A DNA stretch of 64,000 nt from the NCBI GenBank assembly GCA_951406725.2, contig OX597841.1, forward strand, positions 17,980,001 through 18,044,000, given 5' to 3'. The translations under genes and the position numbers were made by a program. The notes beneath the pieces were generated by a model. That model did not search any database. It was not told where the DNA came from and saw only the letters and a list, made by a program, of their open reading frames with translations. This DNA is from Octopus vulgaris. Its lineage: Eukaryota. This document shows, piece after piece, positions 1,532 to 58,526 of this stretch (the stretch's first letter is position 1; each line of letters starts with the position of its first letter).

Positions 1532-1691
1532 CTAAACCTGAGCGAGTGCTGTGTACGTATTGCTGAAGTCGACGGAGATGGAGACGACGTAGAGTTGAAG
1601 GACGACGATGGTGATGACAGAGAAAAGCGTCGTCGAAATGAAGGTGTTGGTGGTGGAAAGATCCTGCTTTGCATGTTGACTGTCGCTCGAG
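1532..1691 (-). CDS. Candidate terminal exon of a minus-strand gene; its first nucleotides (3566-3572) appear separated from it by the Penelope insertion. Reading frame uncertain.
   Basis: Strong acceptor ...ctcttcccatcttcttctacAG at 3574-3573. Rejoining the flanks across GGTG gives CAACACCAGCTCGAGC.... One frame reads NTSSSDSQHAKQDLSTTNTFISTTLFSVITIVVLQLYVVSISVDFSNTYTALAQV* (stop at 1532). Another reads TPARATVNMQSRIFPPPTPSFRRRFSLSSP...RH* (stop at 1444) and is S/P-rich. Confidence 0.4.
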
Positions 1692-1697
1692 CTGGTG

Positions 1698-3565
1698 AAA
1701 TTAACTTACTATGAGAAATTAACACATTACAACCCACAGAAAACACTGAAAAACTTATCCTCCTTGCTCCAAATTCATGGAAAGGGTCTCACTAAACTTG
1801 AAATAGACTATTTATCCAATTTTAAATACAGTCTTAGTCTATTCTACCGATTACCCAAAATACATAAAAATCCACACATTTGTGAAGCCTGCAAAGTCTC
1901 TTCAAGCCTATGCATTAATGTCCCTCCCCCTACTGACCTCAAACTGAGACCCATCATAGCTGGCCCTTCTTGTGAAACCCACCATTTGAGCAACTTCCTC
2001 GACATATTACTCAAACCTTTTTAAAAATATGTGAAAAGCTTTATCAGGGATGACCTAGACATGCTGAACCACCTCCCGAAGACAGTAAAGGAAGGAACCC
2101 TGCTGGTATCTTTCGATGTGGTGAATCTGTACACCAATATCCCACACGACTATGGTATTGAAGCAATCACTTTCCAGCTAGAAAAATACCCAGAAGAGAT
2201 CCCAGTTTTATAATCGAAGCACTCAAATTCATCCTGCTGAACAATTTTTTCATGTTCGATACAACCTACTATCGACAAAAATGTGGAATCGCAATGGGAA
2301 CCAGAGCTGCTCCAGTGATTGCAAACCTTGTAATGGGTAACCTAGAACTCAAGTTATACCAATCATCACTAGAAAAATATGGTGCCTCTTTTAATTGCTA
2401 TTTAAAGGAAAACTGGAAGAGATATTTGGATGATTGCTTCATACTTTGGAAAGACAGCATGGACAAACTCCTTGATTTCAAATTAATGCTTAACAACATA
2501 CACAGCAATATGCAATTCACTATGGAACACAACAGTAAACAACTCCCTTTTCTAGACATCTTAATTAAAATAGTTAACAACCACATAGAAACAGATATCA
2601 TTTATAAACCCACAGATTCTAAACAATACCTATTATTTAACTCTTGCCACCCCAAACACACAAAAATTAATATACCTTTTAATCTAGCGAAAAGAATCTG
2701 TACCATAGTTTTGGATACATATACTCGTGAACAAAGATTCCTTGAACTTAGATCAACACTAACTAAAAGACATAACCCAATCTCATTAATAAATGAAAAC
2801 ATCAAAAGAGCTAAGGAAATAGATATACAAATGTTAAGGCAAACCGGCCGAAATACTAAACCAGACTTTAAAATACTCCTGTACATTTCCACACATACCC
2901 CTAGAAACAACGAAGCCATCAACATTATCACCCAAAATCTTCCCATCCTCACAGCAGACAAAACAATGAGCGAAATTTTAAGCTCTCACAAAATTATAAA
3001 AACCAAAAGGCAACCGAAGTAACTGAAAAAAAATTAACCAGCGCAGGACTATATCCACTAACAACAGAGCCAAAAGTTAAAAAATGTGGTTGTCCTAACT
3101 GTGGAACATGCCCCCACACTTTGGGGGTTTCAGAATTTCACTACAAACAAGGAAAAATATTTAAGATCTAATCAAATTTCACCTGCGCCTCGGAAAATCT
3201 AATCTATGTCATGACATGCTTAGGATGTGGTAACCACTATATTGGACAAACAGGAATATCACTCCGTCGAAGAACCACCATCCACAAAGAGCAAATCTGC
3301 CACCCACAATACAGACAGTTACAGGTTAGTGAACACATAGAAAGGTGCGCCAGGAATCTTAATCCCAATTTCCAAATATTCCCCTTCTATCAATGTTCAC
3401 AGAACATCACAATGCAACAAAGGCTGAATAAAGAGGGAATTTTCATCAACAAATATCTTCCCCAACTAAATATGAACACATAATATAATACAGAACACCA
3501 CTAACCCAACGGGGGCTCGATTTTGCGATCGGCAAGATCCTTTCAGTTGATGTGTCTGAAGAATG
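1698..3565 (+). mobile_element. Penelope-like retroelement (RT + Cys-rich linker + GIY-YIG endonuclease), 5'-truncated and decayed
   Basis: ORF pieces carry FYRLPKIHK, LRPII, SFDVVNLYTNIP, GIAMGTRAAPVIANL, WKRYLDD, LPFLD, CHPKHTK, KCGCPNCGTC and NLIYVMTCLGCGNHYIGQT. Stops at about 2024, 3022 and 3171, frameshift near 2210. Ends in a truncated CTGAAGA motif. Confidence 0.92.
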
Positions 3566-5214
3566 GGTGTTGCTGTAGAAGAAGATGGGAAGAGAAACGA
3601 TGAGAGGGCAGAGAAAAGAGAGAGAGAGAGAGAGAGTCATCTAACAAAGCCATACCATCACTGTAACAATACCATACCCTCAGCATACCATTTGCATACC
3701 ATAAACACATCACATACCATCACCTTACTCTCTCTCTCTCTCCATACTGCCTCGTACTACCACCTTACTTTCAGCCATCCACCCACCTCCAATCACCATA
3801 CCATCCAGTGATACACAATCATGTTATCACTTCCATACCATCACCATACCATTAGCTGGTACCTGGCTATTAATGTCATCACAAACCTTACAGTCATATT
3901 GTAGAGCTATATATGTGTGTGTGTGTGTGTGTGTGTCCTTTGTCTGTAGAATAGTGAATAAAAAGTAGAGAGAGAAAGAAAAATGAGAGGAAGAGAGAGA
4001 GAGAGAGAGAGAGAGAGCACACACCACACACACGCCTTGGATAGGAAAGCAGACATAGGACAGTAACGTTCCAAGGTGACCTTGTGCATCACTCAACAAC
4101 AATACCAATTCCAGCAGAAAAATTGAGGAAAGGCGTGGTGAAGTGAAGTAAAATCTACCTCCTGGAAGGAACGTCAGTCCCTCTCAGCCTATCGACAGCA
4201 TCTAATGCACGTAGAAGCAGAGGCAAGCATGAACATAGAAACACAGATTAGAAAAGGCACTTGTGTATGCATATATGACAGAGCACAGGTTTTGGGCCGA
4301 AGCAATGCAGCATAAGGAATGGTTTGCTTCTGGAAGATCTTTACAATGCAATACAAGAGATGAGAAGCCAGAGATTTCTCTCTCTCTCTCTCTCAATAAC
4401 CTTTTAAGAAATACATTTTCTGCATTGTAACAAGCTTAGCAAACACCTGTGTGTGTGTGTAATTAACATGAAGTCATTATTTTTAAGCAAGATAAAGAAT
4501 GACAACAGAACAGTGACTGGTTGATGAAACGAAGTTGCAGTCAACATGAATTCTACAATATCTAACAAAGCTATCCACACACACACATTTATTTGATTGT
4601 TTCACAAGATTCCTGATGTGAAATTGTGTGTTGAAACAGACATTGTTATCCATGGGGATGGTCATATGTTTGCCAATTAACCAAACGCAGTCTTCCCTTC
4701 ATTCTTATTATTTTCCATCTCAGCTATTTCCTCACACATCCTGTGACCTCTTCAGTCACTCTCCATCCCATGTGTCTCCTCTTAAAATATTAAAAAGCTC
4801 ACCTGAAAAAACAAATTGGCAAAATACGACCATTCCCAAGTATATATATATCATCATCATCATCATCATTTAGTGTCTGCTTTCCATGCTGGCATGGGTT
4901 GGACAACTTGACTGAAACTGGTAAACAGGAGGGCTGCACCAGGTTCCAATCTGATTAGGCAGGGTTGCTATGGCTGGATGTCCTTCCTACCTTTTCTCTT
5001 ATCTTTTACTTCTTTCTCTCACTTGACCACAGCTAGCACTCATTTTTGTAAAGCCTCCTGTTTATTTTGTCAGTGTCCTTTGCCCCACTGCTAAGTTACA
5101 TCGATGTAAACACACCAACACTGGTTGCCGAGTGGTTGTGGGAGACAAACGCAAAGACATGCACACATAGATATATACACACCTACACAGACACACGTGT
5201 GTGTGTGTGTGTTC

Positions 5215-7973: not shown

Positions 7974-8696
7974 CATGTATGCATGTGTGTTTGATTTCAT
8001 ACTCTCTTGTCTCATGGGTGTTAGCTGATTTGTAACCCCTCCTCCACCCGATGATCATATGTGCTGGTGCTATCCTCCAGTCAACCGTAAAAGCACATCA
8101 AGGGTTTCGGCAACGTCTGAACATGTTGAGCAATCATTGCAAACAAACAACGAAAGAGAAAAACTGTCTCACGATCTTGCCTGGCTTGGTTCATTGTTTG
8201 AAAAGCCAAGGGTATTCTCATGCCATTAGGACATAGGTGAAGCTTGGCAACAAGAAGTGCATCTGGCCAGAGAGAAACGACCCTTAGGGGATTGCATCTG
8301 ACCCATGCAAATATGGAAAAGTAAATGACTCAAGAGGGATTTCACTGCCATTTCTAGCTGAATCATGTGACTACATCGAAGCTCCTTTGCTGAGGTGTTT
8401 TGTCATTGTAAGCCCAGGTGTGCCATGCTTGACAAGATCCAGAATCAGACATTCCAGCCATGAACATCTCGTCTTTTATGTCGAGCATAGTGTAGCTTAG
8501 ACTCCATATGTTAAAGTGTTCTACGTTGTTAAGGAGGGAATTAGATGGAGTGTTGCTGCTACTGCTAGCAAATCAATCCCCTACGCAGACCCCTGCTCAG
8601 TGCTTATTGTGTACGTGCAAGCTTGTCAATAGAGGTGCAAAGTGGTGCAGATGAGGTTGCAGAAGCCGACTGAAAGAAGACAAACAGTGCACCCAC

Positions 8697-8744
8697 CTTT
8701 ATGGGCGTGGCATCGTTACGCTCCAGAGAGTTCCGCTTCAAGTG
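8697..8744 (-). CDS. S6K-like exon variant 3 (HLKRNSLERNDATPIK), 48 bp, phase 0/0
   Basis: Acceptor ccttccattctttttAG, donor AAG|GTGGGT. Homologous to exon 13858-13920. Confidence 0.55.
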
Positions 8745-8933
8745 CTAAAAAGAATGGAAGGAGAGGGAGAGAAAGAGAGAGAGAGGGAGAGAAAGAAAGA
8801 AAGAGCGTGATAGATTTAGAAAAACTGTTTTAAAACTCATAAATTTCATGAATTATCTGTGTGTGTGTGTGGGTGTGTGTGTTTAGAAGTTCAATGAAAT
8901 CAGAAACTATACAGATACACAAACACACATGTA

Positions 8934-8985
<52 letters not shown>

Positions 8986-9182
8986 AATGCATACAAACGT
9001 ATACACATATATATATTTACATATACATACATATACACATATATATACATATACACATATATATTTACAGTAAATTCAGGGTGAATACTTGATAAGTGTA
9101 AGCACCTGTATATGCCAGCTAGTAGCAGAGGTGAGAGGACATATGTATCAAATGAAATAAAAAACAGGACACAAAGGATGTC

Positions 9183-9274
9183 GCGGTACACGTGTTTCAA
9201 GCTTTATAAAACAACTTATTCTTACATCAATGTATAATCGACATAACAGATGGTTTAAAGCTCTCTTCAGCCGC
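9183..9274 (-). ncRNA. Type I hammerhead ribozyme candidate with palindromic stem III
   Basis: gcgg CTGAAGA gagcttta...taaagctt GAAA cacgtg TA ccgc. An inverted partial copy lies at 9487-9578. Confidence 0.7.
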
Positions 9275-9869
9275 ATACAATTGCTACACCAAAGACCTGT
9301 ATCACATTATGAAAAGTCCGAAAAGGAACATTTGCTATTATCTATAATGCTAGGTATATTGAGTTTCACTGGGAAAATATGTTTGTAAATCTTCATAATC
9401 AAATAGGTGTGCAGGGTATTATTGGACTTTGAAAATCCGTCCATACTGTATCATCAGTCAATATAGAGTGAATGTTGAGTAGATTCCGGGCTTTTCATAA
9501 TGTGATACAGGTCTTTGGTGTAGCAATTGCATGCGGCTGAAGAGAGCTTTAAACCATCTGTTATGTTGATTATACATTTGCCAGACAATTGCCATCCGAA
9601 GAAAATGAGGCAGTGAAAGGGGAAGAGGGAGAAGAGCTAAAACTTTGGAATTTATTGATGAGATGAAAGAAATGAGGAAGAGAAAAGATTGGGTAAAAAT
9701 GAAACACAGTTGCCAAATGGCCAGAAACAAGTGGAAAGCTGCTGAAGTATTAGAAAGAAAAAGGGCGCAGGAGAGATAAGAAGACATTGGATAGGAAAGG
9801 AAGATGGGTGGAGGCGAGGAAAGAGCAAATGGAAATGCTTCCAGGAGACCTATCATGAAGTGCAAGATT

Positions 9870-10900
9870 TGAATGGTACAGAGGCAATACAAGTTGGTGA
9901 AAGACAAGAATGGAGGAAGTGTGAAAGAGCTTGAATCATCTGGTACCATTACAGAAGCTGACCAGGTGGCATTAGAGTTTGGAGTTAGCAGGGTCCCTAT
10001 TGGTGGAGACGAAGTCATCCAGGCTCTCACAACATTTGAAAGGCCAGGACTGGATTATATCTCAAATGAACTGCTAAAGAACGGCTGGAGGAAATGCTGC
10101 CAAGATACAAGAGCTAAGCAATTTGTGTGATGCCTGTTGGGAAAACAGAGCAGAACCAGAAGAGTAGATAACGAGTGTCATAGGTGCCAAAGAAAGGTAA
10201 ACTCAACAAGTGCAGCAACTTCACCTTTTGATGTTGGTGTCCGGCAGGGTCTTCTGCTCAGTCCTGCTACAATGTTTGAAGGAAGCACTGGATGAACCAT
10301 TCAAAGAAGAGCAAGCAGGATTCCAGGCTGGAAGATCATGCATCAAACAGATGTTTGTACTGCAAAACTCTGTCGAGAAATGCATAGAATTCCAGCCACC
10401 ACTGGTCATTGAATCGATTTCTAAAAAAACCTTTACGAGAGAAATGCTGGGCTGCACTGGCAAGGCATTTACTATACCTCCATCCTTAAGGGTCTGTACA
10501 CCAACTGAAGCTGCAGTGAGAGAACTGAAAGCGGGAACAGAATTCTGCAACATCATCACAGGAGTGAGACAAGGTTGTCTCCTGTCATCTCTGCTGTTTC
10601 TTCTAGTTATAGGCTTTTGTCTTGTGGTGAGCCATAAATGGACTGTTTGCATGAATGCAGTGGACTGTGGGTAGACCCCTAACAAACCTGGTCTATACCA
10701 ATGACATTGTGCTCCTTTCAGGGTCCAGTACTCCAACAAATGACAACCAGAGTGTATGAGGAGGCAACAAGTGCAGATTTAAGAATCACCTCCAAGAAAA
10801 CCAAGGTGGGCCAGGAGGGACGCAGATTTGTGTGAATCAAGGATCCATACTGAAGATGGCACCAACGAAAACCTACCTGGGCAACATGATTCCATGAATC
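9870..10900 (+). pseudogene. Highly decayed non-LTR retrotransposon RT fragment (RTE-like)
   Basis: PGLDYISNELLK, EEQAGFQAGRSC, GVRQGCLLSSLLF, with many stops and frameshifts. Confidence 0.75.
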
Positions 10901-11442
10901 TGATTAGAAACCTGCATGTGAGAGTTTGAATAAGAGACAAAACAAAAACGGTTCCTTTCCATACCAACCTGTATGACATTACAACTGGATTTAGGAAAAC
11001 AAATTTTCAATAAAAAAAGGTGAATCTAAAACTTTAAATCAAAATTTCATGTTAATGTAGGTTCTAAACACAAAATTAATTAACGACAAAGTTAATTTAG
11101 AAAATACGTTACTTGTTTTTTTTCAAATTCAATTGAAACAAAGGCAGTGCATTACCACAGGAATTTGGTAAGAAAGCATTCCAAGACAATTGTCTGGCTA
11201 AAGAAATAATATACAGAGTCAAATTCCAGGCTGACAACAAACAAATTAACAGAAAACAATTATCAAATGTGAAACTCGTTAAATACCAGCCATCCACTTC
11301 CACCTCCTATTCCCAGATTTTGTCTTCTAGCTCGAAACTCAGAGAATCAGCCTCAGGAATTCTGGTGAGTTTCTTGTTAAACCTGATTTTTTCAGTCTTA
11401 AGACTTTTAGTATTGAATATGCTTTCCACCCCTTTGTAGACA

Positions 11443-11491
<49 letters not shown>

Positions 11492-11779
11492 TCCTACCAC
11501 TGCTTGACAACCCAAGCAGGTGTGTTTAAGTCCCATAACAGAGCAGTTTGGCAAAAGAGACTGATAGAATAAGTCCTTGGTTCAAAAAAAAAAAAAAATA
11601 GTAAGCCCTGGGGTTGATTTGTCAAAACTAAGAACCCTTCAAGGTGATGCCCCAGCATGGCCGCAGTCAATTGACTGAAACAAGATTGCTTATGCAATGA
11701 CTTGTATGTGATAAGCATCTGTTTTCCGCTGGCAGAAGAAGGGTGGAGGTGGAGAGGAGGTGAGAGACGATGAGAGAAT

Positions 11780-12690
11780 GGGGCAGGGCATCTGAGCTGG
11801 TTGCACGGTTCTCTGGATGAAGACTGCCATGTGTCTATAAAGACAATTAGCATAGAGTTTGGAGTTGGTGTGGCAACTGGACACAGAATTATTCGTAAAG
11901 ATCTGAGCATGTGCAAAGTTTGTTGCTGAGGAACACCGTGATGAACAGAAGGAAAGACATGTTGGTGAGAGGAGGGAAATGGTTGAGCCCCTTAATCGGC
12001 CATTCAAGATGGAGTCTATTGGGACTTGTGACAAAAGCTGGATCTGCTGTTAGGATTGACAGAGAAAGTGAGAGAGAGGCCAGTGGAAGTCTCTTGGTTT
12101 CCCAAACCGAAAAAAAGGCCAGGCAAAGCAAGTCCACCAGAAAGCTCATGATGATTTCCCACTTTTCGACAACAAAGGCCTCATCTACATCCACTGGGTT
12201 CCCTCTAGCCAGATGATCAACAAAGAGTACTTTGTAGAGGTTTTGAGGGGGTTCAGGAAGAGATTTGAATGCCAAAGGCCAGAGTTCTTTCCACTCGGGT
12301 CAGTAGCGCCAGCAGCAGGACAATGTCCCAATTGACAATTCCATCATGGTACCCAAATTCTTGACAGAGATGAACATCAAAACTGTCCCTCACCCACACC
12401 CCTCTTAAGACCAGACCTTGCTCCCTGTGAATTTTGTTTGTGTCTCCAAGCTGAAGGAGAACCTTAGGGAATAGTCGTTTTAAAGATGAAAGAAGCTGTG
12501 ACAAGGGTCCTGGACACCTTCACTTCGGAGGACTTTCCTGGGGCCCTTCATGAAATGGCTGGATTGCAATGACAAGTGCATTGAAGTGAGAGGACCCTAA
12601 TTTGAAGGAGGTTAGAGTTTTGTTGTAGTTCTTTGAAATTAATGAATGTCTCTCCTAAAAGAGTCTCAAAACATCTGGAATGCATCTTCT

Positions 12691-12692
<2 letters not shown>
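11780..12692 (+). mobile_element. Mariner transposase remnant
   Basis: Across frameshifts: HRIIRKDLSMCKVC, KKARQSKSTRKLMMI, FDNKGLIYIHWVP, INKEYFVEVL, QQDNVP, DLAPC. Confidence 0.85.
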
Positions 12693-12725
<33 letters not shown>

Positions 12726-12961
12726 ACAGTACTTATATGTATATATATATATACTCCCTGGCATGCCCACACACGCCCCATCCTAATTCATATACGGCAT
12801 TCAAGCAGTACCTGCAAGCACACACACACACACACACAACTACACACTTACGCACACAGTCCCATGTTGTTCCACCTACCACACACACACACTTACTGCT
12901 GTACAGCTACACATATTCCACAATAATGCTAAACACTTACACACGCATCTACAAAGCTATA

Positions 12962-12993
<32 letters not shown>

Positions 12994-13023
12994 TACTGCC
13001 ACACAGCTAGATACACAACCAAC

Positions 13024-13065
13024 CTTAATAGGACTGGCCTCGGCAACCCCAATTATCTTCAACAG
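13024..13065 (-). CDS. S6K-like exon variant 2 (LLKIIGVAEASPIK), 42 bp, phase 0/0
   Basis: Acceptor (tc)n...ctctctAG, donor AAG|GTTGGT. Same LLK...PIK boundaries as 13858-13920. Confidence 0.5.
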
Positions 13066-13262
13066 CTAGAGAGAGTGAGAGAGAGAGAGAGAGAGCTATA
13101 CATATATATAGAAAGAGAGAGAGAGAGGAGAAAGGGAGAGGTGGATGGATATGTATGTGTGACTATATGATATATATGTACGTGTGTTTATATATATGTG
13201 TGTTTATGTATGGCAGTATGAGTGTGTGAATGTGTGTGTGTGTATATATATGTGTATGTATG

Positions 13263-13301
<39 letters not shown>

Positions 13302-13857
13302 TATAGACATACACACACATAAAAAGGGGGAGGGAGAGAGAGAGAGAGAGGAGAACAACAAGCTACAATGAAATACAGAAATCAGTAAAAACAACAACAG
13401 CAACAACAATAGATTTTTCCGAATTGATTTTGCAGACTTTTCCAAGATGAGAACTTCTATCAACAAAAGGCCAAGTCACATGTAACCCTTTTCATTCGTT
13501 GCTTCTGTCATATTATGAAACGAAAGTGAAAGTAGAAGACTCTCATCCAAGAAGGTGAGTGACAGGAGAGGAATTAAAACAGGACTGAAATGGAGTAAAA
13601 AGGGGCTTACACTGGGCTGAGTGGTACAATAACAAAGGGGAAAACAGACTTCAATTCATTTCATGCAACAGAGTCCCTTCTATCTTTAAATTAAGGAGCA
13701 CATGAACCAGTGAGGGAGCTCTGATATAATCACTTGAGCCTTACTCAAGTAAACTGCTAAATTTCAGCAGTAACAACGACAACAACAACAGCAGCAATAA
13801 CAACTCCCGCGCCTCAAAAAAAGAAGAAAAAACGTAAAAAAGAATTCAGTGACCAAC

Positions 13858-13920
13858 CTTGATGGGTCGTGAGTCATCCTTGCCACCTCCTAACCGTTCC
13901 TCTGGGTTCTTCTTCAAGAG
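13858..13920 (-). CDS. RPS6KB: p70 S6 kinase-like exon, subdomain XI (LLKKNPEERLGGGKDDSRPIK), 63 bp
   Basis: Acceptor tatctgtttgtccAG, donor AAG|GTTGGT. In phase with exon 18122-18187; LLKxxxxxRLG is the AGC-kinase motif. Confidence 0.85.
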
Positions 13921-18121: not shown

Positions 18122-18187
18122 CTTTTTGATAAGGTTACGCGCTTCGTTTGTCAAATAGGGGGGAAAATTTAATTTACACTTTAATAT
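18122..18187 (-). CDS. RPS6KB: p70 S6 kinase-like exon (ILKCKLNFPPYLTNEARNLIKK), 66 bp
   Basis: Acceptor tttttctctccAG, donor AAG|GTAAGA. Close to the S6K1 sequence [22 protein letters not shown]. Confidence 0.92.
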
Positions 18188-19911
18188 CTGGAGAGAAAAA
18201 GTTCAAAAGAGGCAGAGAGAAAATTAGATTTTTATTATTAATGAGTTTTAAACAGATAACAAAACATTAAATATGCAATATTATATCTTTAACTAGCAGT
18301 GGCTCATCGTATATACATATGTACACATCCTCTTTCAGGCATAAACTACCCAGGCATGGTCGTCTGTGTGTGTGTGCCAAAATACATCCTCTTAACCTTT
18401 AGCCCACTAATTTGCCCATAGAATAGCTTCCTTTGCCCCCTGTATTATTTTGAGGGGAACAAAAGAAATGAACACCTATTATGAAATTCACAAAACTTTC
18501 ATTGTAATGTGTGTAAGGAACTGATTAAAAAAATATTTTTTTTTGTATACTAATAACGGAATGGATGAATGATATTTTTGTGTAATACATTAAGGCATGG
18601 ACGAAGGAGTTGCTCCTCCGAAAAGTACCTCGTTGGGGCCAGTACTTTCCTTAAATCAGCCAGCCATAGATGACAGTAGCCACTCAGTACATCGTTCTCA
18701 ATAGAACTGTAAACACAGTCTACATCCTCATCATCACCTCAAATAATTTCACCCTTGATTTGGCCTCGGTTCTATCGAACTTTGTTTTTTCTCTTCCTGG
18801 ATGAAGATGGCTTCTCCTGCATTTGAAGCTTCCTGATTCTGAAGGATAGTCACATGACTGGTCTTGGAAACTTTTGTCGGTCCCCCCCCCGCTACGTCCT
18901 TGTATTAGTATCAAGTGACAATGTTTAGTGTTGTAAGTTAAGGCTGACACGGTTGACTGAACAAGTCTAGTGGCACTACAAAACGATCAAGGCTCCACAT
19001 GCTCTCTGTCAAGCGTTTGTAGAGAACGAACACGTGATTCAGTTTAGAACCTTCCTATGTCCGTGTGTTAGTGTCCCATGGCTGTATATTTTGCCCCTAA
19101 TATGATGGCCAACACCGCTGAAATCTACACATTTTTCCCATTCTCTCTCTGTCTATTTTCTCTTATTCCTTTCTGTTGAAGAACATAGGATTGAAACACA
19201 AAAGACTTTTTCATTTTCCCCAACAACAAACTAATACATTTGCTTGTTGATCACACACCTGTCTTTGTCTTTCTACAAATTAAAACTCTCTATATGTATA
19301 TATGGCTTCTAACCCACAGGCTGTGAGTTCACATCCCACCAGGGATGATTTATTTTCAGTTGTCCAACCCATGCCAGCACGGACAATGGATGTTAAATGA
19401 TGATGGCAATGTATGTGTGTAGAGACATGCTTGCATATTTGCATGCACAAGTGCTCCAACACTCACACACGCATGCACATAGAACATCACACACGTACAC
19501 ACACTTCATGCACAAACATGCTACTTGCACACAGCTGTTACACATATGCATTTGCACACACAAACACACATCTGGTAGCCTCACATACTATACACACCCT
19601 CCCACATACTCGTTTACTTATTATACACTCGCATACATGCTCCCATACGCACACACAATCTCACATAATCTTAATCTTGCCTGCACACACATACACACAC
19701 ACAGACTTGTGCCCCCTCCCCCCCAGTTTGGGCAGGTCACTCTTATCTCCCTTTCCATTGGCCCCTTTCTTCTTGTCAGCTCAACATGGGAAACTGTTTT
19801 TGTAAATCTGGTACTTATTCTATTAGTCTCTTTTGTTGAATCACCAAGTTATGGGGATACGAACAAACAACACCAGGTGTTAAGCAGTGATGAAGGACAA
19901 ACACACGCATG

Positions 19912-21030
19912 TCTCTCTATATATAAATGGCAGTTTGTCTGTCTGTGTGTCTGTCAGGTTGTACCCTCACCCTGACCACGGCTTTCAACCGATTCTGATG
20001 AAACTTGACACACATAGCCCATTGCCATAATTCAGAAGGCAGCGAAAATTTTTAAAAGTTCCCCCAGTTCTGAAGAAAATCGATAAATTCGACATGGGGT
20101 CGAGAATCTAAGCTTTTTATATGCAACACATTTTCTGTTGTAGTTTTCGCAACTTGCAATCGATTTTCACCAAACTCATGGTGAAGCTTAATGTTACCCT
20201 AAGAAACTTAATTCTGACGTTAGTTTTCCATGCAATACCTTAACATCAGAAAAAAATCGATAAAATCATGCCATTTTGGGAAATCGCGTTCAAATTCAAG
20301 ATGACATATTTTCGACAATATCTTTCACAAATTGGCAGGAATTTTTTTTAAATTCACAGTGAGCATCATGTCTGCTCCAAGGAGCTATATGGCCCTTTTT
20401 ATTCCAATAGGATACTTTATTACTGGAAAAAATTGGTTAATTAAATCAGATGTGACGCACATAGCAAACCAATTTGTGTATTGAACACAAACCACACACT
20501 GTCTAGGGGACGCAACTAGACCTTTTTAACTCTCGGAACATGTGGGGTAAGTATCCCAAAATATATAAAAATGTACAAAACCGGCAAAAAAGCGGGCAGC
20601 AATGTGAGTGACAACAACGAAAAAGTCAAAAGTGACCAAACTGAACAAACGAATGGAAAAGGTTTTTTGGTGCACACGACAAAAGCGGTCTATAATAAAC
20701 CAAGAGTTTGCAAAAATTTAAGGTAAAACGTTTGGGGTGGTAGATATAAAGAAAGTTTAAACAAAAAAAGTATTCGAATAACTTGCAGCTGCAGCAGCTA
20801 TTAGCAGAAGTGGCGGTGTTGGGGGTAAAGTCTTGAATATAATTTCTTCCTGGTAGGAATTGGTTCCGTTGAATTATCGATAGCTGGTTGATAGTTATTT
20901 GGGAGTGAAGAGAAGACATTGCAACCTACACATGCGCCTTCGTTCCCTAGAGAGAAAGGACTAGATTGGGATTAGTCGTTGCCTACTAGGGGCTCTTACA
21001 TACCCGGGCAACGCCAGGCTATGCTGCTAG
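19912..21030 (+). mobile_element. Non-autonomous Helitron
   Basis: 5' TC(TCTCTATATATAA), subterminal hairpin cccgggcaacgccagg, 3' CTAG|T. Shares its 5' region with 41696-42065. Confidence 0.8.
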
Positions 21031-21253
21031 TATACTATAAATGCATCACAACACATGTTTCTCCCTCTCCATTTTCCAAGCTGGTTTGGGTTGGACAGCT
21101 TAAAAGGAACTGGCAGGGTCAAGAGCCCTACTGGGTACCCTGATCAGTTTTGGCTTGGTTTCGACAGCTCGATGCTCTTCCGAGCGCCAACCACTTTACA
21201 GAGTGTATTGGGTGCTTTACACATGACACCAGCACCCAGACCAACATATTTCA

Positions 21254-21310
<57 letters not shown>

Positions 21311-21314
<4 letters not shown>

Positions 21315-22470
21315 TCATCATCATTTAACATCTGCTTTCCATGCTGGCATGGGTTGGATAGTTTGACTGAGGACTGCCAAGGCACAAGGATGTACCAGGC
21401 TCCAATCTGGACTGGCAAAGTTTCTACAGCTTGATGCCCTTCCTAATGCCAACCACTCCAAGAGTGTAGGGGGTGCTTTTTACATACCACTGGCAGGAGG
21501 ACCCATCAGGCGATACTGGCATTAATCACACTTGAATGGTGCTTTTCTGTGCCACCAGCATGGGAGCCAGTCAGGCGGCACTGGCAATGACCAAGCTCAA
21601 ATGGTGCTTTTTATGTGCCACCAGCACGGGACCAGTTAGGTGGCACTGGCATCAGCCACGACAATGACAATAAAAAGAAGTGCTGATCACTTAAAGTGGA
21701 AGGAAATTGTGGAAGTGAGAAACCGAGGAAGACATGGGGCAAAGTACTGAAAACTGATCTCAAAATGCTGGGCCTTACAAAGAAGATGAAAGGGGACTGA
21801 GATATGTGATGCATTGCTGTTCTCAAGAAGACCTGCCCACCACAACAGAACCGAGATCCGAAAACCAAGGCAGCACATAAAAAGCACTGGTGCTGGGGCC
21901 ATGAAAAAAGCACCTGGTACACACTGTAAATTGGTTGGTGTTATGAAGGGGATCCAGCTGTAGAAATTAGGCCAAAACAGAGCATGGGTCGTTGTGCAGA
22001 CCTTAGCCTTGCCAGCTCCTGTCAAACCATCCAACCCATGCCAGCATGGAAAGCACATTAAAAGATGATGATGATGGTGATGATGATAAACTTGCTTTTC
22101 TTAGAATATTCTATTTCCTCTTAGAAATATATATCTGGAGATATTTTCTGAGATCTCTTTGAATTTAATCAATTTTGGGTCATCATCATCATCATCGTTT
22201 AACGTCTTCCTTCCTTGCTGGCATGGGTTGGACAATTAGACAAGAGCTGGCCAAGCAGGAGCCCACACCAGACTTGTGTGTGTTTTGGCAGGGCTTTTAT
22301 GGCTGGATGCCCTTCCTAAAACCAACCACCCCATGGAGTGGACTGCATGCTTTTTACGTGGCACAAACACAAACGTGGTCGGTTTGACATGCCTTTTACA
22401 GCCGGACGCCCTTCCAAATGCCAAACACTTAACAGTGTGGACTGGATGCTTTTTAAGTAGCACCAGCACT
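21311..22470. mobile_element. Cluster of RTE-tail-type short repeats in both orientations with (CAT)n/(GAT)n tails
   Basis: The motifs catgctggcatgggttgga and ggatgcccttcctaatgccaaccac recur here and at about 4850, 5630, 6400, 43250 and 46950. Confidence 0.65.
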
Positions 22471-22729
22471 CTGGGACAACCTTGATAACATTGTCTTAAG
22501 ATGCATATTTTCAGATGTATTGATTTGAATAATATTTTCTACAACAGAAATGATCGGCGGCATTGTAGAGTGAAATTCTACAATTAAAGCTGTGATTTTC
22601 TCCGTTCTTATTTTTGTTATATACGTATATATTTAAATGCATACTTCCATACCCATATTTACATATATGCATCCATACATCCCTACACCCACGTGTATCT
22701 CCACCCCGATCAGGCTATTCGAATACTTA

Positions 22730-22852
<123 letters not shown>

Positions 22853-24215: not shown

Positions 24216-24300
24216 GGTAATTTTATTCAAATCTGTTATTGTACAGGGTAGACTAAAAGTCTTGTCACTACCCGTATTATTTTAAGTTTCTCTTATGAAG

Positions 24301-27300
24301 GAGAGAGTTTCACGGGAGCGATACCAGAATATGGACAAACACGAATGTTCGTGGAAACTTAATGAATTCGAATTATGTAAATTTGCATATAAGTGATAAT
24401 AGTTTGAATGAAAATTGCAGGAACTCAGAAGTTTGCGGAAATCAGACGAACACGAATCACAAAAAGGAGAAGGCAGAGGAAGAGAGGGAAAAAGAAGAAG
24501 ATGAATCTATGAAACCCGACAACAGCACGAGTGGTTTAGTTGAAACGGACCCTAGATGCCAACCCACTGAAGTTCCATTTCTGTACTATCCTGCAGCCAG
24601 CGAGAAAGAAAATGTTTATCACAGAAGCTGTTCCAAGATGAATAATCTTAAGGGTTGTTGTGAGGCTGAATTAGACGATGAACACACCAATAAAGATGTA
24701 CTCAGAAATGATGAATTTTATCTTAAAATCCAAGTAGATGAGAAGAGGAGGAATGAAAAGAAAGCAGGGAGTGTGGAAAGCAATGACTGCTATTTAGCAA
24801 AATCACAGTTTATTAGTCAATCCGTTGTTGATTCACTTAAAAGCAGAGATGTCCTGGAACACAGTAGAAATGACGCTGGTAAAACATGCTCGAATAACGC
24901 TAGCAGTTTTTACAATGATAGAGCTGTCTTCACCAATTCAGATGAGGATTATGAAAGAGCCGAATCCTTAATGAGCACCAACGTGAATAACAGAAATTCT
25001 GACGTAAGTGGAGAACAAACGATGAGAGTCAATCACGGAAATTTGTACGTAAGTGGAGAACAAACGATCCCAAATTACGGAAACTTGGATGTAAGCGGCC
25101 AACAACAAAACGGAGACTCAAACTTGAACGGAACTCGAATGAAAACAAGCTACAATAAACCTGAAGGAAAAGAAGAAGAAGAAGAAGAAGAAGAAGAAGA
25201 AGAAGAAGAAGAAGAAGAAGAAGAAGAAGAAGAAGAAGAAGACGACCAACAAGGACAAGAATGTTTGGAAGTCGACGATAGAAAGAAAAGTTTAGTTGGA
25301 ATGGAATGTCATCGTGATGTCGTTCTGTTGACGTGTAGTGATGCAACCATTGAAAGAACAAGCGTTTCTCACACAAGCAGTTCACAGATGGTCGTCTTTA
25401 ACGACGGCACTAACGCTGTCTCAGATTATGGTCCCACCCACGAAGATGTGACAAGAAATGATCGATTTCACCCTACAATCCTGGCTGGCGAAGAGGATCG
25501 AAGAAGCAAAACTGAAGGGGAGGAGTGTGTGGAAGTCGATAACAGCAGCATACGTTTAGAACCAGCAGACTCGTGTAAAGGTGTCACATGTAGATCACAG
25601 GCGAATATCCTTAACCAGAACAGAAATGATATTATCGAAGCGTGTTCAGGTGAGGTTCACAATTTCTGCAATGACGTCCCTATCCTCAAAAATGTAGAAG
25701 AGTTCAAAGAAAAAGTCCAATCCTTAAAGCGTACGAACTCAGATTATGGAAATCCGCACGCAAGTCAAAATCCGACGAAAGAAAATCCCAACAACCCAAA
25801 TGTATGTGGAAATCGAATGAATGCTAATTACGGAACATCAGGTGTAAATGGAAATTTGACAAACAAAAACTGTGGAAAGTCAGACATCACTAAAATTCCA
25901 GCAACAGAAGAAAATTGTGGGAAATCGAAAGAAAGTGGCAAACTGGTCGACGCAAATTTCAATGAGTTAAACGTAACTACAAATCAGATGAACACAAGTT
26001 ATAGAATCTCAGAATTAAGTGGAAAACTAACGAACGAAAAGCTCAGCATCACGGAAGACGGCAACGATGAGGAAAAAGAAAAATCTAATAAAATTCACAA
26101 AAGTACGAAAAATTTAGTTGAAACGGAACGGAAGCGTCATCTGGTTGAAGTTTCGTTAATGTGCAATGAATGCAACGGGAATGCAAACTTTTCTCACACA
26201 AGCAGTTCACAGACAAAGATTGTTAATGGCTGTAGTTGCACCAATAAAAATGTTGTCAGAAACGACGAGGAGAAGCAAAGAAGACAGAAGGTCGAAGAGC
26301 ACGAGAAGAACAATAAGAGAAGAAAAGCAGAGTGGAAGTGTCAGTCCGTTGTAAGTCTATCCAGAGACAGAGATGTTAGCATACACGGCTTACAGACGAA
26401 TATCATGAACTGTGGCAGAAACGGTTTTGTCCAAACGTTTGCGAATGATGTCCTTAATTTCTGCAATAATGTCCATGCAGTCGGCAATGTAGAAGAAAAG
26501 GAGAACGAATCAGGGCATTGTTCATCGAGGATAAACTCAAAATATGGAGATTCAGGCGTTTGTCGAAACCCGACGAACGCAGACGTATGTGGAAATTGGA
26601 ATAACACAAATGATGGAAACTCGGTAAATTCAAAATGCAAAAAATCAGAAGCGAACGGGAGTCAGACAAAAGCAGACGACAAAACCTCAGAAAAAGGAGA
26701 TAAGGAAGGAGAAGGGAAACTAGTAAGGAAAATCCTCAAAGGCAACGGTGAAATAGAAACAGACCGTCACACCATTGAAGGTCATTACGGAAATAATGCA
26801 GCCAGCGACAGAGCCAACATCTCTTACAGAAGCAATTCACAGATGGATAGATTTAATGGTGACACCAATAGTGACGTCACCAATGATCGATTTTATCCCC
26901 AAACCCAGGAAGACAAGGAAGCCCGAATAAGCCGAAAAGAAGGAGGACATACGGAAACTGATAACTGCCGCAGCACTTTAGCAAATCTTGGTTCCCTATG
27001 TCAATCAGTTGGTATTCCACTTATTTGCAGTGATGCCATAAGCAGCTTGCAGACGAATGTCTTAAATCAGATCAGTAATGACCGTGTCGAAGGGGGTTCA
27101 AATAACGTTTACTCCTTTTGCAATAATGTCCCTGCTCTCATCAGGGCACAAGATGACGAAACAAATCAAAGCTCAAACAGGATGAATGCAACTAACGGAA
27201 ACTTGGATGTAAATCGAATTACATCCAATTGCGGTAAGTCAAACGACATTGGGAAGCGGACGAATTCCATCTGCGGGAAATTAGAGGCAGATGAAAATCG

Positions 27301-28874
27301 GGTGGACGCCAGTTGTGGAAACTGGAATGTAAATAGAAAAAGAACGAGTGAATATTGTGAAAATCTGCACGTAAGTGGAGATCAACCGGGAAACGCAGAC
27401 GTAAGGGAACATTCTAGAAATTCGAATTACGTTTACTCAGATATAAGCGGGGATAGAGTGAATTTATATCACGGAAAATTAGAAAACGGAGATAAGGAAG
27501 GAGAAGAAATGTCAATGAAAATCCACAAAAGCAACAATGATTTAGTTGAAACGGAACCGGAGCGCCATCCAAGAGAGGTTCCATTTCCATGCAATATTAC
27601 AGGAAACGCGAAAGCAAACTTGTCTGAGGTAAACAGCTCAAAGGTGAATAGCTTCAACGGTTGCAGAGACGTTGTCTCAGATACTGGCCTCGTCATTAAA
27701 AATGCAACTAGAGATGATCGATTTTATCTGAAAACCATGCCTGGCGATGAAGATGAAAGGGAAAAGGAAGTGGAAGTAGAATACGTGAAAACGTTCAATA
27801 GCAACAGTTCTTTAGCAAAACTAGAGTTAAGATGTCAACCTGTTGATAATTCAACTATGGATTCGCATACCACAGTACATAAGTCACAGGAGGCCAGCTT
27901 AAGCAACAACAGCAGCAGTGATATCGTCGTTGGACGTTCGAATGTCAGTCGAAATTCTGGCAGGGCTATCCCTTTTCTTAACAATGCGGAAGATAATTCA
28001 CCAAGAAAGTTCTCAAACGGAACTAACCCAAATTACGGAAACTCAGACGTAATTGGAAATTTAACGAATAGAAATTACGGAAATTCGGAATATGAAGATA
28101 AGGATCAAGAAATATCTAAGAAAATCGACAACAGCAACAATTATTTAGGTGAAGCGCAACCTAAGCATAATCTCACGAAGGTCCCATTTCTGTGCAATGC
28201 TGCAACAAGCAAGAGGACAGACTTTCCTTACACAAGCAATTCACTGATTCACAACTCTCATGGCTGCACTGATGTTGTCTCAGATTATAACCTCATTGAG
28301 GAAGATGTGGCCAGAGATGATCGATTTTCTCCTAAAACCCAGGCAAACAAGGAGGCCCGAGGAGGTCAAAAGGAAGAAGAGTATGTGAAATCCGACAAGA
28401 GCAGAAACAGCTCTTTACCTACAATAAGTCCTGTTTGCCAGCCCGTGGCTAATCCACCTGGATGCAGTGATGCCATAAATTGCTCACAGAGCAGTAATGA
28501 TGCTGTGAAAAAGAGTTCGAATGACGTTCGTAGTTGCCGCAGTAATACTCTCTCTGTTCTCCACGATGCTAACGACGGTGGCTTAATAGGAGAGATATCG
28601 AACAGAACGAATAGAAATTGCAAAACCATGGATGCGGATGGAAATCGGACGAATGTAAAGAACCTCGCTCAAGATTCAAGTGGAAAGTCGACAAATGCAA
28701 GTTACGGAATCTCAGACTTAAATAGGAATCACGCGAATACACCGCTATTCCGGATTGAAAATCCCAATTGCTCCGATGATCAGCGTGTACCTGCGGCCAA
28801 TGACAAGACAGCCTCCTTCCCGATCATCCTCTCAATCGATCAGCAAGAATCTTTCTATTCTGATCTCCCACCAA
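24301..28874 (+). CDS. Giant internal-repeat exon of a RAD51AP2-like gene (first ATG at 24362)
   Basis: Uninterrupted 4.6-kb frame in a repeat-rich genome. It opens right after TGA at 24296-24298, at acceptor tttctcttatgaAG (24300), and has a consensus donor CCAA|GTAAGT at 28874 (phase 1). N/S/E/D/C-rich, with poly-Glu from (GAA)n at about 25171-25240. Confidence 0.85.
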
Positions 28875-29451
28875 GTAAGTATTATTATTTTGGCTGTCTT
28901 TACGTTCTGAGTTCAAATTCCGCCTTTCACCCTTTCGGGGTCGATAATGTAAGTACCATTTGAGCACTGGAGTCGATATCATCGATTTACTCCCGTCCCC
29001 TCTAATGCTGGCCTGACACCAAAATTTGAAAAGCAAAATATTGTTGTTGTTGTTCTTGTCATGTCAAGCGCATTTGAATCCCTCCACGTTTCCCTGCGAT
29101 CCATTATATCTGGAACCCATTTTTAAAAGCTTTGTATCCTACAACAGATGCTGCACATACGCTAGACAATGTTTCTTTTTCTGTCACATACTGGTCCCTA
29201 TAGTCATAATTAACGTCCAATTTTATCTTTTCTTCGCCAACACTGCCCGACAGACGACGGGCTTCTTTCAGTTTCCGCTTAGCACATCTTCTCACAAAGC
29301 TTCAGTCGGCCCTGAGCTATACTAGAACACACTCGCCGAAGGCGCTGCGCAGTAGCACTGAACCCAATGACCACAAGATTGAAAAGCAAGCTTCTAACCA
29401 CACAGCCACGTCTGTAAATAGTTTCTTCTTCATTGATTTTAGAAGAGAAAT

Positions 29452-50938: not shown

Positions 50939-53900
50939 TTACAGATTTATGCTTAAAATAGTGTCGTCTTTCATACTGACCATTTTTGCCACTTTTACCC
51001 ACTTTTTATTAAAACATTCGTTCGACAAAGCCTTCCTCTCTATTCTCATCCTCCTTTTCAAGTGGTACTTGAAAAAGTTGACGAGAGACTGACCAGAGAG
51101 GAAGATGTTTGTTTGCAGTCCTTTCAAACGCGTCCACCACACACATTCTTTCGCCATAGCCATCAGCGTAACGAAAACCGTTTTCCCTTCCCGTTTAAAG
51201 GAAGGTGGTGGAACAATATTCACGATAGACTCGGCCGATAGGCGAGCCTGACCTACACGTGACAACAGCTGTTCGACGAAGGACCACAGCTCTGAAATAT
51301 CTGGACACTGCACGAGTGCGTGCAGAACGGTTTCGTCGCTCTGACCGCATCTCGGGCAGGTCGGTCCGGTGATGGTTTTCGAACCGTGTCTGTAGCTCTT
51401 CTCTCGAACAGGTAGTGCGTCTCGATAGCACTGCCAAGCCAGGGATTTCTGGAAGTTATCCATAGGCCCCGGCCCGAACGTCGTCCTGAACAGGCGGGTT
51501 AGGAATTCCTCGTCGACGCCCAGGTTTGCCCCGAGTGTGTCGTCGGACCTCCCCTCCACTAGTCCTCTATAGAACGCTTTAGTCGTTTGGAAGTTGCACA
51601 AGTTTGACCCCGGTCGGCAGAGCTGCTGTAGAGCTTGGCGACACTCTCGGTGCCAATCGCCCAGTTTCGGTCTCTTTTTGATCCACGTTTGCAGTTCGGT
51701 CAGTGAGACGAGCTGCGGGAAGTCGCGCCTCACAAACGGCGCCCACACCTGTTCACCGTCGTCGATGAATTTCCAGAGATGTCGCAGTCTCAGCGCATGC
51801 CTGCGCATCATCAACCACGGCATGCCCAGTCCTCCATTCAACGGATGTTGACAGCAAATGGACTTCCTCACCATCGGAACGCCACCCTTCCACAGGAAGC
51901 GGAAGAGTATGCGTTCCAGTTTGGTGATGGTGGCGTCGGGACAAGGTACGACGGTCAGGCGGTAATCGATGACGGATGCGATGTACGCGTTCGCCACCTC
52001 CGCCCGGCCTTTTAGAGACAGCTTTCTCTCGGCCCATGTTTGGCTGAGAGCGACCACTCTACTCGTGATCTCGTCCCAGTTCTTATCCATTTGGAGGTCC
52101 GGACTGAACCAGACTCCGAGCAATTTAACCGGTCCGTCCGTCCAGCGTCCCACTACTGAGCCGCAGTCGGACGGCATGGGCTTGCTTCTCCAGGTGCCGA
52201 GTAGCAAACCCACTGACTTTTCCGGGTTAATCTTTGCTCCCGTCACCGTTTCATATTTTCTTAGTGTCTCGCCGACCAGCTCGATGTGCTGGTAGCTCGA
52301 CACTATGACGGTGACATCGTCCGCATATGCCGACACGCTCGTCCCGCAACCCAGTTCCCGTGGGATGCCCCTCAGTGTCGCCAGCTTCCGCAGTAGCGGC
52401 TCGAGAGTCAATACATACAGAAGCGCCGACAGGGGACACCCCTGACGGACCGAACGCGTGATGTCAAACGGTTTAGACAGGTGACCGTTTACCCGAATCA
52501 CCGATCGGATGCCGCTATACAAGGCAGCGATCCAACCGCGGAAGACGGGACCGAAGCCAGCCGCCCTGAGGACGGCCGCCAAGTACCGATGGTCGACCCT
52601 ATCGAAGGCTTTAGACTGATCCAAATTTATCAGCGCCCCACCCATGCCAGGATCCTTAACTACCCTGTCCACAATGTAGCGCATCAGATGGAGGTTGTCA
52701 TGTATGGTTCTGCCCGGCACGGCGCATGTTTGCGCCCTGTCGACCAGTTTACCAATGACAAGCGCCAACCTCTCGGCTATTACTTTGGCCAAAATTTTCA
52801 AATCTGCGTTGAGCAGAGTGATGGGCCTGAAATTATCTATAAAATTCCCCTTGTTTGAGTCTTTCTTCAGCAACGTCACTGCACCTCGGCTCACGAAACC
52901 GGGGATTCTCCCGTTTTGTTGCCAGTTGCAGTAGACTGATGCCAAGAGTTCGCCAAACAAGTCTGGCATTCGACAATACAGCTCGTAGGGTAAACCATCC
53001 AATCCAGGCGACTTATCCCTCGCGCAGCCCGCCATCGCATCCCACACGTCAGCGGCTGTGATGGGACTTTCACAACACTCCGCCTCTCTTGCCGAGAGCC
53101 GCGGCAGGTCGGTCAGGTAGGCACTGAAATCCATCCCTCGTTCCGACCCACCACTCGCACCAAACAGTCGAGCAAAGTGCTGTTGAAAGGCCTCACACAT
53201 CCTTTCGGGTTCGAGTAAACTGCATCCCTGTTGATCTATTAGAGACCGAATGGTTGATCTGTTGCCACGCTGCGCCTCCGCTACCCGGGCCTCTCGCGCA
53301 GCTTCAATCCCTTCGTTCCTTAAGGCACGCATTTTAGCTCTGACGACGCAACCTTCGTGCTTGGCGTTGAGGTGTTGGTCGAGGGCCATCCTCGCAGCTA
53401 GCACGTTGGTTGCGCTGCCAGTGGTAAGTGCCTCTTCTAGTTTCTTAACTAAGTCTCCCTCTACTCTATTTCGTTCTATCGCTAATTCCTTGCTAAACCT
53501 AATTGATTCCGATTTTATTGCCATTTTCAGGGCGTACCACCAGCGGTTGTTAACGACCGCTCCCGTCAGCGCCCTCTTAATTAACTCGCTAATCCGGTTC
53601 CTGTAAACCTGTCGCGCTAACAGCGACGTGTTCAGTTTCCAGTAACCGGGACCCTGCCTATGTGTTTTATCTAAGTCGAGCGTACACGTAACAAATTTGT
53701 GATCTGTGTAGCTGACTATTTTAAATTGTGGACATCCTACACTATCCCTATCCGCTGTCCTGCATAGAATTCTATCTAGATAAGATCTCGACGATCCGAC
53801 GCGGTTTGTCCAAGTCCACGTTGGCACGTTCGGATGGTCGAGTCGGAACCTGTCAGACAAATGGAAACGTCTGAGCAGGTCTTTGAGGCTCTTACACCCC

Positions 53901-54379
53901 CTTCTATTCCTATCCCTTCCCACATAATCTAGATGCGTGTCCAAGGTAGCGTTCCAATCCCCTACTAACAATAAAGGTCTAGACGTACCCAGGAAAACCT
54001 CTAGACGTCTGAAGAAATCCGCCCGACCCGTTAAGGACGGTGCATAAACTGCCATCAGACGGAATGCACACCCATTTCTGCCATCCACGTCCAAGACAAC
54101 CAGCCTACCCTCCGGGTCTAGGAATATTGCTCTTACTTTTATCTTTAGACTCTTTCGAAAAAGCACCGCAGTACCTCCACCACCCATGTTCGGCAGACAG
54201 GGAGAAAAATAAATGTCAAATTGATTGCCAAACATGGACTCGAGGGCCCGCGGCTTACTGAGTCTGGTTTCGCTGATAGCTACTATATCCACGTCCAGTG
54301 ACTTGATGTCGTTTAGAAGGTAACCTTGCTTCCAAGCCGACGCCAAGCCACGCGCATTCACACAACCTAATTTAAGCAT
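50939..54379 (-). CDS. LINE ORF2: APE endonuclease + reverse transcriptase + C-terminal zinc finger
   Basis: VNARGL, AISET, VGDWN, SYLDRI, YTDH; SPGLDG, FRPITLLNADLK, LDQSKAFDRV, RQGCPLS, YADD; CPRCGQSDETVLHALVQC. No stops. Confidence 0.96.
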   Translation of the reverse strand: MLKLGCVNARGLASAWKQGYLLNDIKSLDVDIVAISETRLSKPRALESMFGNQFDIYFSPCLPNMGGGGTAVLFRKSLKIKVRAIFLDPEGRLVVLDVDGRNGCAFRLMAVYAPSLTGRADFFRRLEVFLGTSRPLLLVGDWNATLDTHLDYVGRDRNRRGCKSLKDLLRRFHLSDRFRLDHPNVPTWTWTNRVGSSRSYLDRILCRTADRDSVGCPQFKIVSYTDHKFVTCTLDLDKTHRQGPGYWKLNTSLLARQVYRNRISELIKRALTGAVVNNRWWYALKMAIKSESIRFSKELAIERNRVEGDLVKKLEEALTTGSATNVLAARMALDQHLNAKHEGCVVRAKMRALRNEGIEAAREARVAEAQRGNRSTIRSLIDQQGCSLLEPERMCEAFQQHFARLFGASGGSERGMDFSAYLTDLPRLSAREAECCESPITAADVWDAMAGCARDKSPGLDGLPYELYCRMPDLFGELLASVYCNWQQNGRIPGFVSRGAVTLLKKDSNKGNFIDNFRPITLLNADLKILAKVIAERLALVIGKLVDRAQTCAVPGRTIHDNLHLMRYIVDRVVKDPGMGGALINLDQSKAFDRVDHRYLAAVLRAAGFGPVFRGWIAALYSGIRSVIRVNGHLSKPFDITRSVRQGCPLSALLYVLTLEPLLRKLATLRGIPRELGCGTSVSAYADDVTVIVSSYQHIELVGETLRKYETVTGAKINPEKSVGLLLGTWRSKPMPSDCGSVVGRWTDGPVKLLGVWFSPDLQMDKNWDEITSRVVALSQTWAERKLSLKGRAEVANAYIASVIDYRLTVVPCPDATITKLERILFRFLWKGGVPMVRKSICCQHPLNGGLGMPWLMMRRHALRLRHLWKFIDDGEQVWAPFVRRDFPQLVSLTELQTWIKKRPKLGDWHRECRQALQQLCRPGSNLCNFQTTKAFYRGLVEGRSDDTLGANLGVDEEFLTRLFRTTFGPGPMDNFQKSLAWQCYRDALPVREKSYRHGSKTITGPTCPRCGQSDETVLHALVQCPDISELWSFVEQLLSRVGQARLSAESIVNIVPPPSFKREGKTVFVTLMAMAKECVWWTRLKGLQTNIFLSGQSLVNFFKYHLKRRMRIERKALSNECFNKKWVKVAKMVSMKDDTILSINL

Positions 54380-54445
54380 ACTTGACAATTACGAAAATTG
54401 TGTTTTACACACTATATTAGAAGAGACAAGAGGCAAGAAGTGAGG

Positions 54446-58369: not shown

Positions 58370-58464
<95 letters not shown>

Positions 58465-58465
58465 C

Positions 58466-58504
<39 letters not shown>

Positions 58505-58526
58505 CAGATAGATAGATAGACAGATA

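Follow-up and report, generated by a model that had tools for sequence, protein, structure and literature searches.

Three described systems come closest to an arrangement of exons that we report here from a p70 S6 kinase (S6K) gene of Octopus vulgaris. According to the accessible parts of PMC9741552, the FynT and FynB forms of FYN arise by tandem duplicated exon substitution, in which homologous exons of one phase, old and conserved, encode a surface region of the kinase. Human S6K1 is itself alternatively spliced, giving the h6A and h6C isoforms under SRSF1, with a possible effect on mTORC1 signalling (PMC3775402, available text). In PKA, the sections of PMC2823524 at hand describe an AGC-specific insert (residues 282-286) in the loop between helices alphaH and alphaI, which also bears the Arg of the Glu208/Arg280 salt bridge; the S6K segments considered here fall at the same place, beside the Arg that pairs with the APE motif. 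This loop is named a tethering site in the part of PMC11616992 that was consulted. The locus lies in a stretch of 64,000 nucleotides (nt) of O. vulgaris DNA (assembly GCA_951406725.2, contig OX597841.1, positions 17,980,001 to 18,044,000), hereafter the window, in which positions are counted from the first letter. One exon of the gene occurs there in three tandem versions, termed A, B and C, and our analysis favors the view that B and C are added after A.

Tandem versions of one S6 kinase exon

By sequence, the gene is a p70 S6 kinase (RPS6KB) of the AGC family. A homologue search with exon K, which encodes the activation loop, returned S6 kinases; of the real relatives, those from O. vulgaris and O. 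bimaculoides ranked first. The cephalopod proteins that share the window exons carry Pkinase and Pkinase_C domains, and their best matches among solved structures are to human S6K1 (E down to 4.6e-174). The three exon versions are as follows.

13920-13858, minus strand: exon A, 63 nt, acceptor CAG, donor GTTGGT; carries the invariant Arg (R316 in the numbering of record P0012).
13065-13024, minus strand: exon B, 42 nt, acceptor TAG, donor GTTGGT; a shortened duplicate that ends S-P-x-K.
8744-8697, minus strand: exon C, 48 nt, acceptor TAG, donor GTGGGT; a shortened duplicate that ends T-P-x-K.

Exon A of the cephalopod p70 S6 kinase is duplicated twice in tandem. All three versions are in phase 0/0 and free of stops, with pyrimidine tracts before their AG acceptors and near-identical donors, and they are separated by introns of 792 nt (A-B) and 4279 nt (B-C). 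Alignment of the DNA gave common starts and ends, with the deletions lying internally; at the protein level, A and B share 7 identical residues, A and C share 9, and B and C share 6. Neighboring exons are thus homologous and agree in phase, frame and splice signals, as tandem duplicates should. A 14-letter pattern made of the shared exon end and donor matched the window three times, at A, B and C, where 0.02 matches were expected, and none of 100 shuffles reached three; since the pattern was derived from the three exons themselves, this test is optimistic. No fourth copy was found within the window. A sequence-only reading of this DNA had picked out the same three minus-strand exons, and its coordinates, translations, frame and homology all held up.

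The versions differ in what they can contribute to the kinase fold. R316 is conserved without exception in the 47 S6Ks aligned and is encoded in A, not in B or C. Exon C possesses other arginines, but the turn that follows the invariant Arg is missing from it. Conversely, the S/T-P-x-K terminus is present in every B and C seen and absent from A. We take this terminus to be a putative proline-directed, CDK-type site.

Use, age and structural setting of the short exons

Seventeen cephalopod-type records span the region; one is a single-exon genomic open reading frame (ORF) and was left out, leaving 16 spliced records. Exon A, with its invariant Arg, is kept in all of them. Eight contain A only, eight contain A followed by a B- and/or C-type unit, and none contains B or C without A. 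The sequence-only reading had raised the possibility that the versions replace one another and that isoforms are impaired by loss of the subdomain-XI Arg. The records support neither idea: B or C follows A instead of replacing it, and the Arg is lost in no isoform seen. Seven of the eight insert-bearing records carry one of B and C, and the O. bimaculoides gene model P0008 (A0A0L8H6M9) carries both. B and C may exclude each other, although rare inclusion of each would hide their co-inclusion.

The clearest view of this arrangement comes from Logan contigs. Two A-only proteins from two species, P0123 (38 contigs) and P0124 (6 contigs), are identical to each other at 471 of 488 residues. P0012 and P0127 equal P0123 plus one of two different 16-residue inserts, and P0125 equals P0124 plus the first, P0012-type insert, with 489/489 aligned residues identical in each case. 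Isoforms with and without an insert, between unchanged flanks, are what a cassette exon produces (P0012 and P0127 against P0123; P0125 against P0124). The contigs of P0012, P0127 and P0125 measure 1836, 1767 and 2332 nt for 505 residues, whereas A to D spans 10.3 kb of the window; given contigs this short, these three forms very likely derive from spliced mRNA. Gene models add A+C forms from Argonauta hians (GAB1611103.1) and O. vulgaris (CAI9742779.1, CAI9742821.1 and CAI9742841.1). The next exon, D, is joined in frame after the insert in all three Logan insert forms and in three of the five insert-bearing gene models. The O. vulgaris models probably come from the chromosome-level annotation, which, as described in the accessible text of PMC10700109, combined long and short RNA reads with ab initio models. 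Another Logan record, P0126, has a 12-residue insert near residue 440, in the C-terminal autoinhibitory region, and represents a second alternative splice of the same cephalopod gene.

The short exons are conserved. Exon B of the window is identical to that of O. bimaculoides P0008 at 14/14 residues. Against the 16-residue insert of P0012 and P0125 it has 11 identities, compared with 7 to A, and scores 41, compared with 13-25 against A- or C-type units of other records. Loss from B has gone two residues further in Octopus than in the Logan cephalopods. Exon C is the same as the O. vulgaris form throughout and matches O. bimaculoides P0008 at 15/16 residues and Argonauta P0122 at 14/16; its match to the P0127 insert (8/16) is a weak best match. 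A tree of 33 S6Ks places the Logan pair (98/92) within a cephalopod clade (100/100), beside Argonauta plus Octopus. The two Logan cephalopods probably lie outside the octopods, and the decapodiforms are their likely group; in that case B, at least, is older than the octopus-decapodiform split, which the available part of PMC9068888 places at about 275 million years ago; for O. bimaculoides and O. vulgaris, the part of PMC9699675 that was consulted gives about 50 million years. No S6K from Nautilus or from a named squid or cuttlefish surfaced in the homologue searches. The sequence-only reading had named conservation in other cephalopods as a check, and the answer is positive: B and C occur in Octopus species, C in Argonauta, and inserts in the Logan pair. 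Its proposal of a duplicated-exon cassette in p70 S6K is thereby upheld, both by conservation and by transcript-type records. Its alternative, that B and C are decaying duplicates, is unlikely, as they are neither unconserved nor absent from transcript-type records.

Outside cephalopods, the same duplication was not found: of 185 S6K-like records that span the loop (from 304 in the collection), 179 lack it. The alphaH-alphaI loop is 11 residues long in 177 of these, 12 in 2 and 27 in 6, so that 179 have the usual 11-12 residues, and the six with 27 are all cephalopod. Among 73 non-cephalopod records of the mollusc cluster, all 59 that span the loop have 11 residues; the other 14 do not span it. 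Inclusion of B or C adds 14-16 residues, and in the alignment to human S6K1 the insert appears as a clean 16-residue gap directly after the Arg turn. AlphaFold2 models of an A+B form (P0012) and an A+C form (P0122) show high confidence for alphaH and again beyond the insert but low confidence between the two, with per-residue confidence (pLDDT) of about 89-90 at residues 301-310, 48-54 at 321-340 and 88-92 at 341-360. A model matched the S6K1 structure 4l45 with Z 27.9 and a root-mean-square deviation of 2.8 over 283 aligned residues, and a further search against S6K1 structures gave E 3.6e-36. The models thus appear to keep the kinase fold with the insert in place. Four of 109 spanning distant kinases also carry inserts of 30-50 residues at the same place, and by eye these do not look like exon repeats.

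Based on these sequence comparisons and models, we consider it probable that A is kept and that the shortened B and C are optional cassettes added after it, giving a kinase that would still fold and work with a longer surface loop. Exon A would have been duplicated in tandem twice, with B and C becoming shortened. A would then be constitutive, with B or C spliced in after it now and then, and the protein would retain the salt-bridge Arg while gaining a surface loop of 14-16 residues. Because copies without the Arg segment would be useless as substitutes yet harmless as additions, they could have survived in this role. The extra loop likely tunes docking or phosphorylation in minor isoforms.

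Several points weigh against this interpretation. Gene models make up five of the eight insert-bearing records, and such models may connect exons that no RNA supports. Each Logan insert form is a single contig (3 of 49 contigs over seven Logan records), contig counts being no measure of expression. The collection consists of cluster representatives and the members that were read, from which rare junctions from the upstream exon U to B or to C could escape. Of 24 sequencing-run entries, 20 contain the stretch or a part of it, with none on record as RNA and with the kind guessed or unknown, which speaks neither for nor against. The mean pLDDT of the models is 58, with long disordered ends, and their register follows the alignment used, so that the position of alphaI is not independent and the models speak for compatibility rather than proof. 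With respect to age, C is a weak candidate for an orthologue of the P0127 insert (it scores 39, the alternatives 34 and 31), and the grouping of Argonauta with Octopus to the exclusion of the Logan pair is supported at only 83/60. Finally, the broken state of the gene copy in the window, described below, could be an assembly fault.

State of the gene copy and its surroundings

The remaining S6K features of the window, and the related gene models, are these.

22731..22821, minus strand: exon K (DFG and activation loop), 91 nt; matched by tblastn to cephalopod S6K residues ~212-241.
18188..22730, minus strand: gap between K and U, 4543 nt; the expected APE/alphaF exon and the 14-codon exon after it are absent.
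18122..18187, minus strand: exon U (alphaG-alphaH), 66 nt; upstream partner of A.
3508..3572, minus strand: exon D, broken; a TGA at 3545-3543 replaces the invariant Trp, and there is no normal donor.
1680..3483, plus strand: decayed retroelement, likely Penelope-like, with reverse transcriptase (RT) fragments and a GIY-YIG domain; its 3' end adjoins the cut in exon D.
One 29.19-Mb contig (CAI9742753.1-CAI9742850.1): ten partial O. vulgaris S6K-like models, P0007, P0009, P0121, P0242, P0243, P0246 and P0251-P0254.

The window was searched by tblastn with five full S6K proteins (E up to 50, rows of at least 45% identity) and by a six-frame motif scan. In the 64 kb, tblastn found only K, U, A, B, C and part of D. 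Neither the APE exon nor the 14-codon exon was detected by either method, in the K-U gap or elsewhere in the window, and no earlier S6K exon was found in the 41 kb upstream of K. In exon D, homology covers 21 of the normal 26 codons, five short of the end taken from P0248 and P0249, and the rest of the exon had no match elsewhere in the window. The window therefore holds no complete S6K ORF, an incompleteness beyond what the sequence-only reading had remarked. In the adjoining retroelement, RVT_1 (E 0.0011) and GIY-YIG (E 0.00032) were found in the right order, both below the Pfam cut-offs; its assignment to a Penelope-like family is our assumption. In view of cephalopod recoding, we considered whether A-to-I editing converts the TGA of exon D to TGG, but set the idea aside, as the genome-based O. 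vulgaris models carry Trp and the exon is also cut.

The ten O. vulgaris models each lack different exons; none is complete and none includes the 14-codon exon. Three of them begin with a common non-kinase segment, which resembles a helicase fragment but had no Pfam match, and these three differ from one another, with 247/255, 180/186 and 182/186 residues identical in pairwise comparison. Taken together, the ten models suggest a local multi-copy expansion. We regard it as likely that the copy in the window is one broken member of a multi-copy S6K region, with the functional cassette probably located in a different one. A less likely explanation is that errors of assembly, or collapse in a repeat-rich region, produced the exon losses, the stop and the truncation of exon D, and that the window holds the sole working S6K gene. 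Microsatellites and mobile elements crowd the window, and the lack of even one complete model among ten would also fit poor assembly or annotation. However, the lesions are four and independent (two exons gone, a nonsense codon, a retroelement at the cut and no upstream exon in 41 kb), and the three models with a shared start differ as diverged copies would, on one contig. S6K annotation in the O. vulgaris group appears to be scattered across several partial copies and should be used with caution.

Two other features of the window stand apart from the cassette. At 24299-28963 on the plus strand is a stop-free ORF of 1554 codons, rich in N, S and E, with a poly-E run and, by eye, degenerate internal repeats; it ends 1.5 kb upstream of exon K, which lies on the opposite strand. 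It had no match in Pfam or the Atlas, and self-comparison gave only the trivial diagonal; it is possibly an exon of a lineage-specific gene. An apparently intact long interspersed nuclear element (LINE) occupies 50939-56248 on the minus strand, with a 600-residue ORF1 and an 1149-residue ORF2 (endonuclease, RT and zinc finger), and truncated relatives of it lie at 57148-58533 and 58920-59819.

Alternative explanations and known systems

The strongest competitor for the role of B and C, although an improbable one, is that they act as a brake: the added insert could disturb alphaI or the APE salt bridge and lower activity or stability, or C could sometimes serve as the last exon, leaving an inactive protein with no tail that resembles the short isoforms of human S6K1. 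According to the accessible sections of PMC2823524, this loop and the activation segment are coupled. The length of the loop is also almost constant across S6Ks. Further, the gene models P0007 and P0008, from two species, stop after C at the same stop, by read-through or a nearby acceptor; beyond the C donor, the frame is open for 30 codons, and O. bimaculoides P0008 has a similar peptide there. Activation of mTORC1 by short S6K1 isoforms has also been described (PMC3775402, available text). Nevertheless, the early stop occurs in these two gene models and in no transcript-type record, and they may end merely where the assembly or the copy ends. Continuation into exon D, as counted above, is the rule in the Logan insert forms and in most of the gene models, the closest AATAAA words lie ~900 nt beyond the C donor, and distant kinases, whether active or not, bear long inserts at the same place.

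The start of the intron after C (8577-8696, minus strand) contains four TGCAC words and is the sole minus-strand site of the window with four in ~120 nt. This cluster is a candidate splicing element, the motif having been picked after the fact. Judged by its read-through peptide, the stretch seems to be conserved in O. bimaculoides.

Decay is considerably less likely as an account of B and C, with both duplicates persisting by chance and entering transcripts only as splicing noise. The insert forms look rare, with one contig each, parts of A have been lost from both copies, and B has become shorter in Octopus than in the Logan species. On the other hand, the frame, the splice sites and the S/T-P-x-K end are preserved in every copy seen, identity remains high between the window and both O. 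bimaculoides (B and C) and Argonauta (C), and B is closer to the insert of a distant cephalopod than to A.

The least likely explanation, by a little, is that A, B and C are mutually exclusive, such that use of B or C would cost the kinase its Arg or the loop behind that Arg and impair it: substitution events usually involve tandem homologous exons of one phase with near-identical donors (PMC9741552, accessible parts), but no record holds B or C without A while eight hold them together with A, the exon lengths are unequal (63, 42 and 48), the introns are too long for steric exclusion, and the inverted repeats lying between them consist of microsatellite pairs plus one local hairpin. Pairing of docking and selector RNA elements was rejected on the same evidence, since nothing but microsatellite pairs and one local hairpin of 95 nt is present among the 25 longest of 338 inverted pairs. 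This hairpin (9229-9323 with 9484-9578, 96% complementary) lies in the B-C intron and is a possible editing substrate.

Add-on cassettes are less dramatic than kinase-dead switching. Nevertheless, they represent exon duplicates retained as additions, not as substitutes, inside a kinase core, in a loop whose length is otherwise near-fixed from cnidarians to mammals. Three isoforms, distinguished by 14-16 residues on a known docking surface beside the APE salt bridge, offer a test case for change in cephalopod mTOR-S6K signalling by splicing. We can speculate further, with more doubt than confidence, that this is a coleoid-wide splicing switch in the principal effector kinase of mTOR, dating back about 275 million years, in which truncated duplicates of a core kinase exon came to serve as regulated add-on exons and provide two alternative phosphorylatable C-lobe docking loops, probably in nervous tissue, that wire S6K to proline-directed kinases or new partners, alongside a recent burst of partial S6K copies in the O. 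vulgaris group. Alternative splicing in O. vulgaris is highest in neural tissue, an observation not specific to B and C (PMC9699675, in the part available).

No earlier account of these exons was found in the literature searched, which included few subscription papers; data file S1 of PMC9699675, an octopus isoform annotation, lay outside that coverage and may hold the isoforms. S6K is not mentioned in the main text of PMC9699675, PMC10700109 or PMC9068888, nor in the readable supplements of PMC9699675 and PMC9068888.

The gene thus compares with known systems as follows. With p70 S6K (RPS6KB1/2) it shares its domains and its closest structures; the non-cephalopod S6Ks examined are without the loop insert, and the copy in the window is incomplete. 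In contrast to substitution of the FYN type, within what the accessible parts of PMC9741552 describe, the S6K copies are added rather than swapped, being too truncated to replace A, and the result is an insertion. The human h6A and h6C isoforms, as presented in the available text of PMC3775402, are truncating, whereas the cephalopod cassettes are in frame, arose by exon duplication and leave the kinase domain and tail intact in the transcript-type records. Finally, the PKA insert in the consulted sections of PMC2823524 is fixed and short, while in S6K optional exons lengthen the corresponding loop by 14-16 residues.

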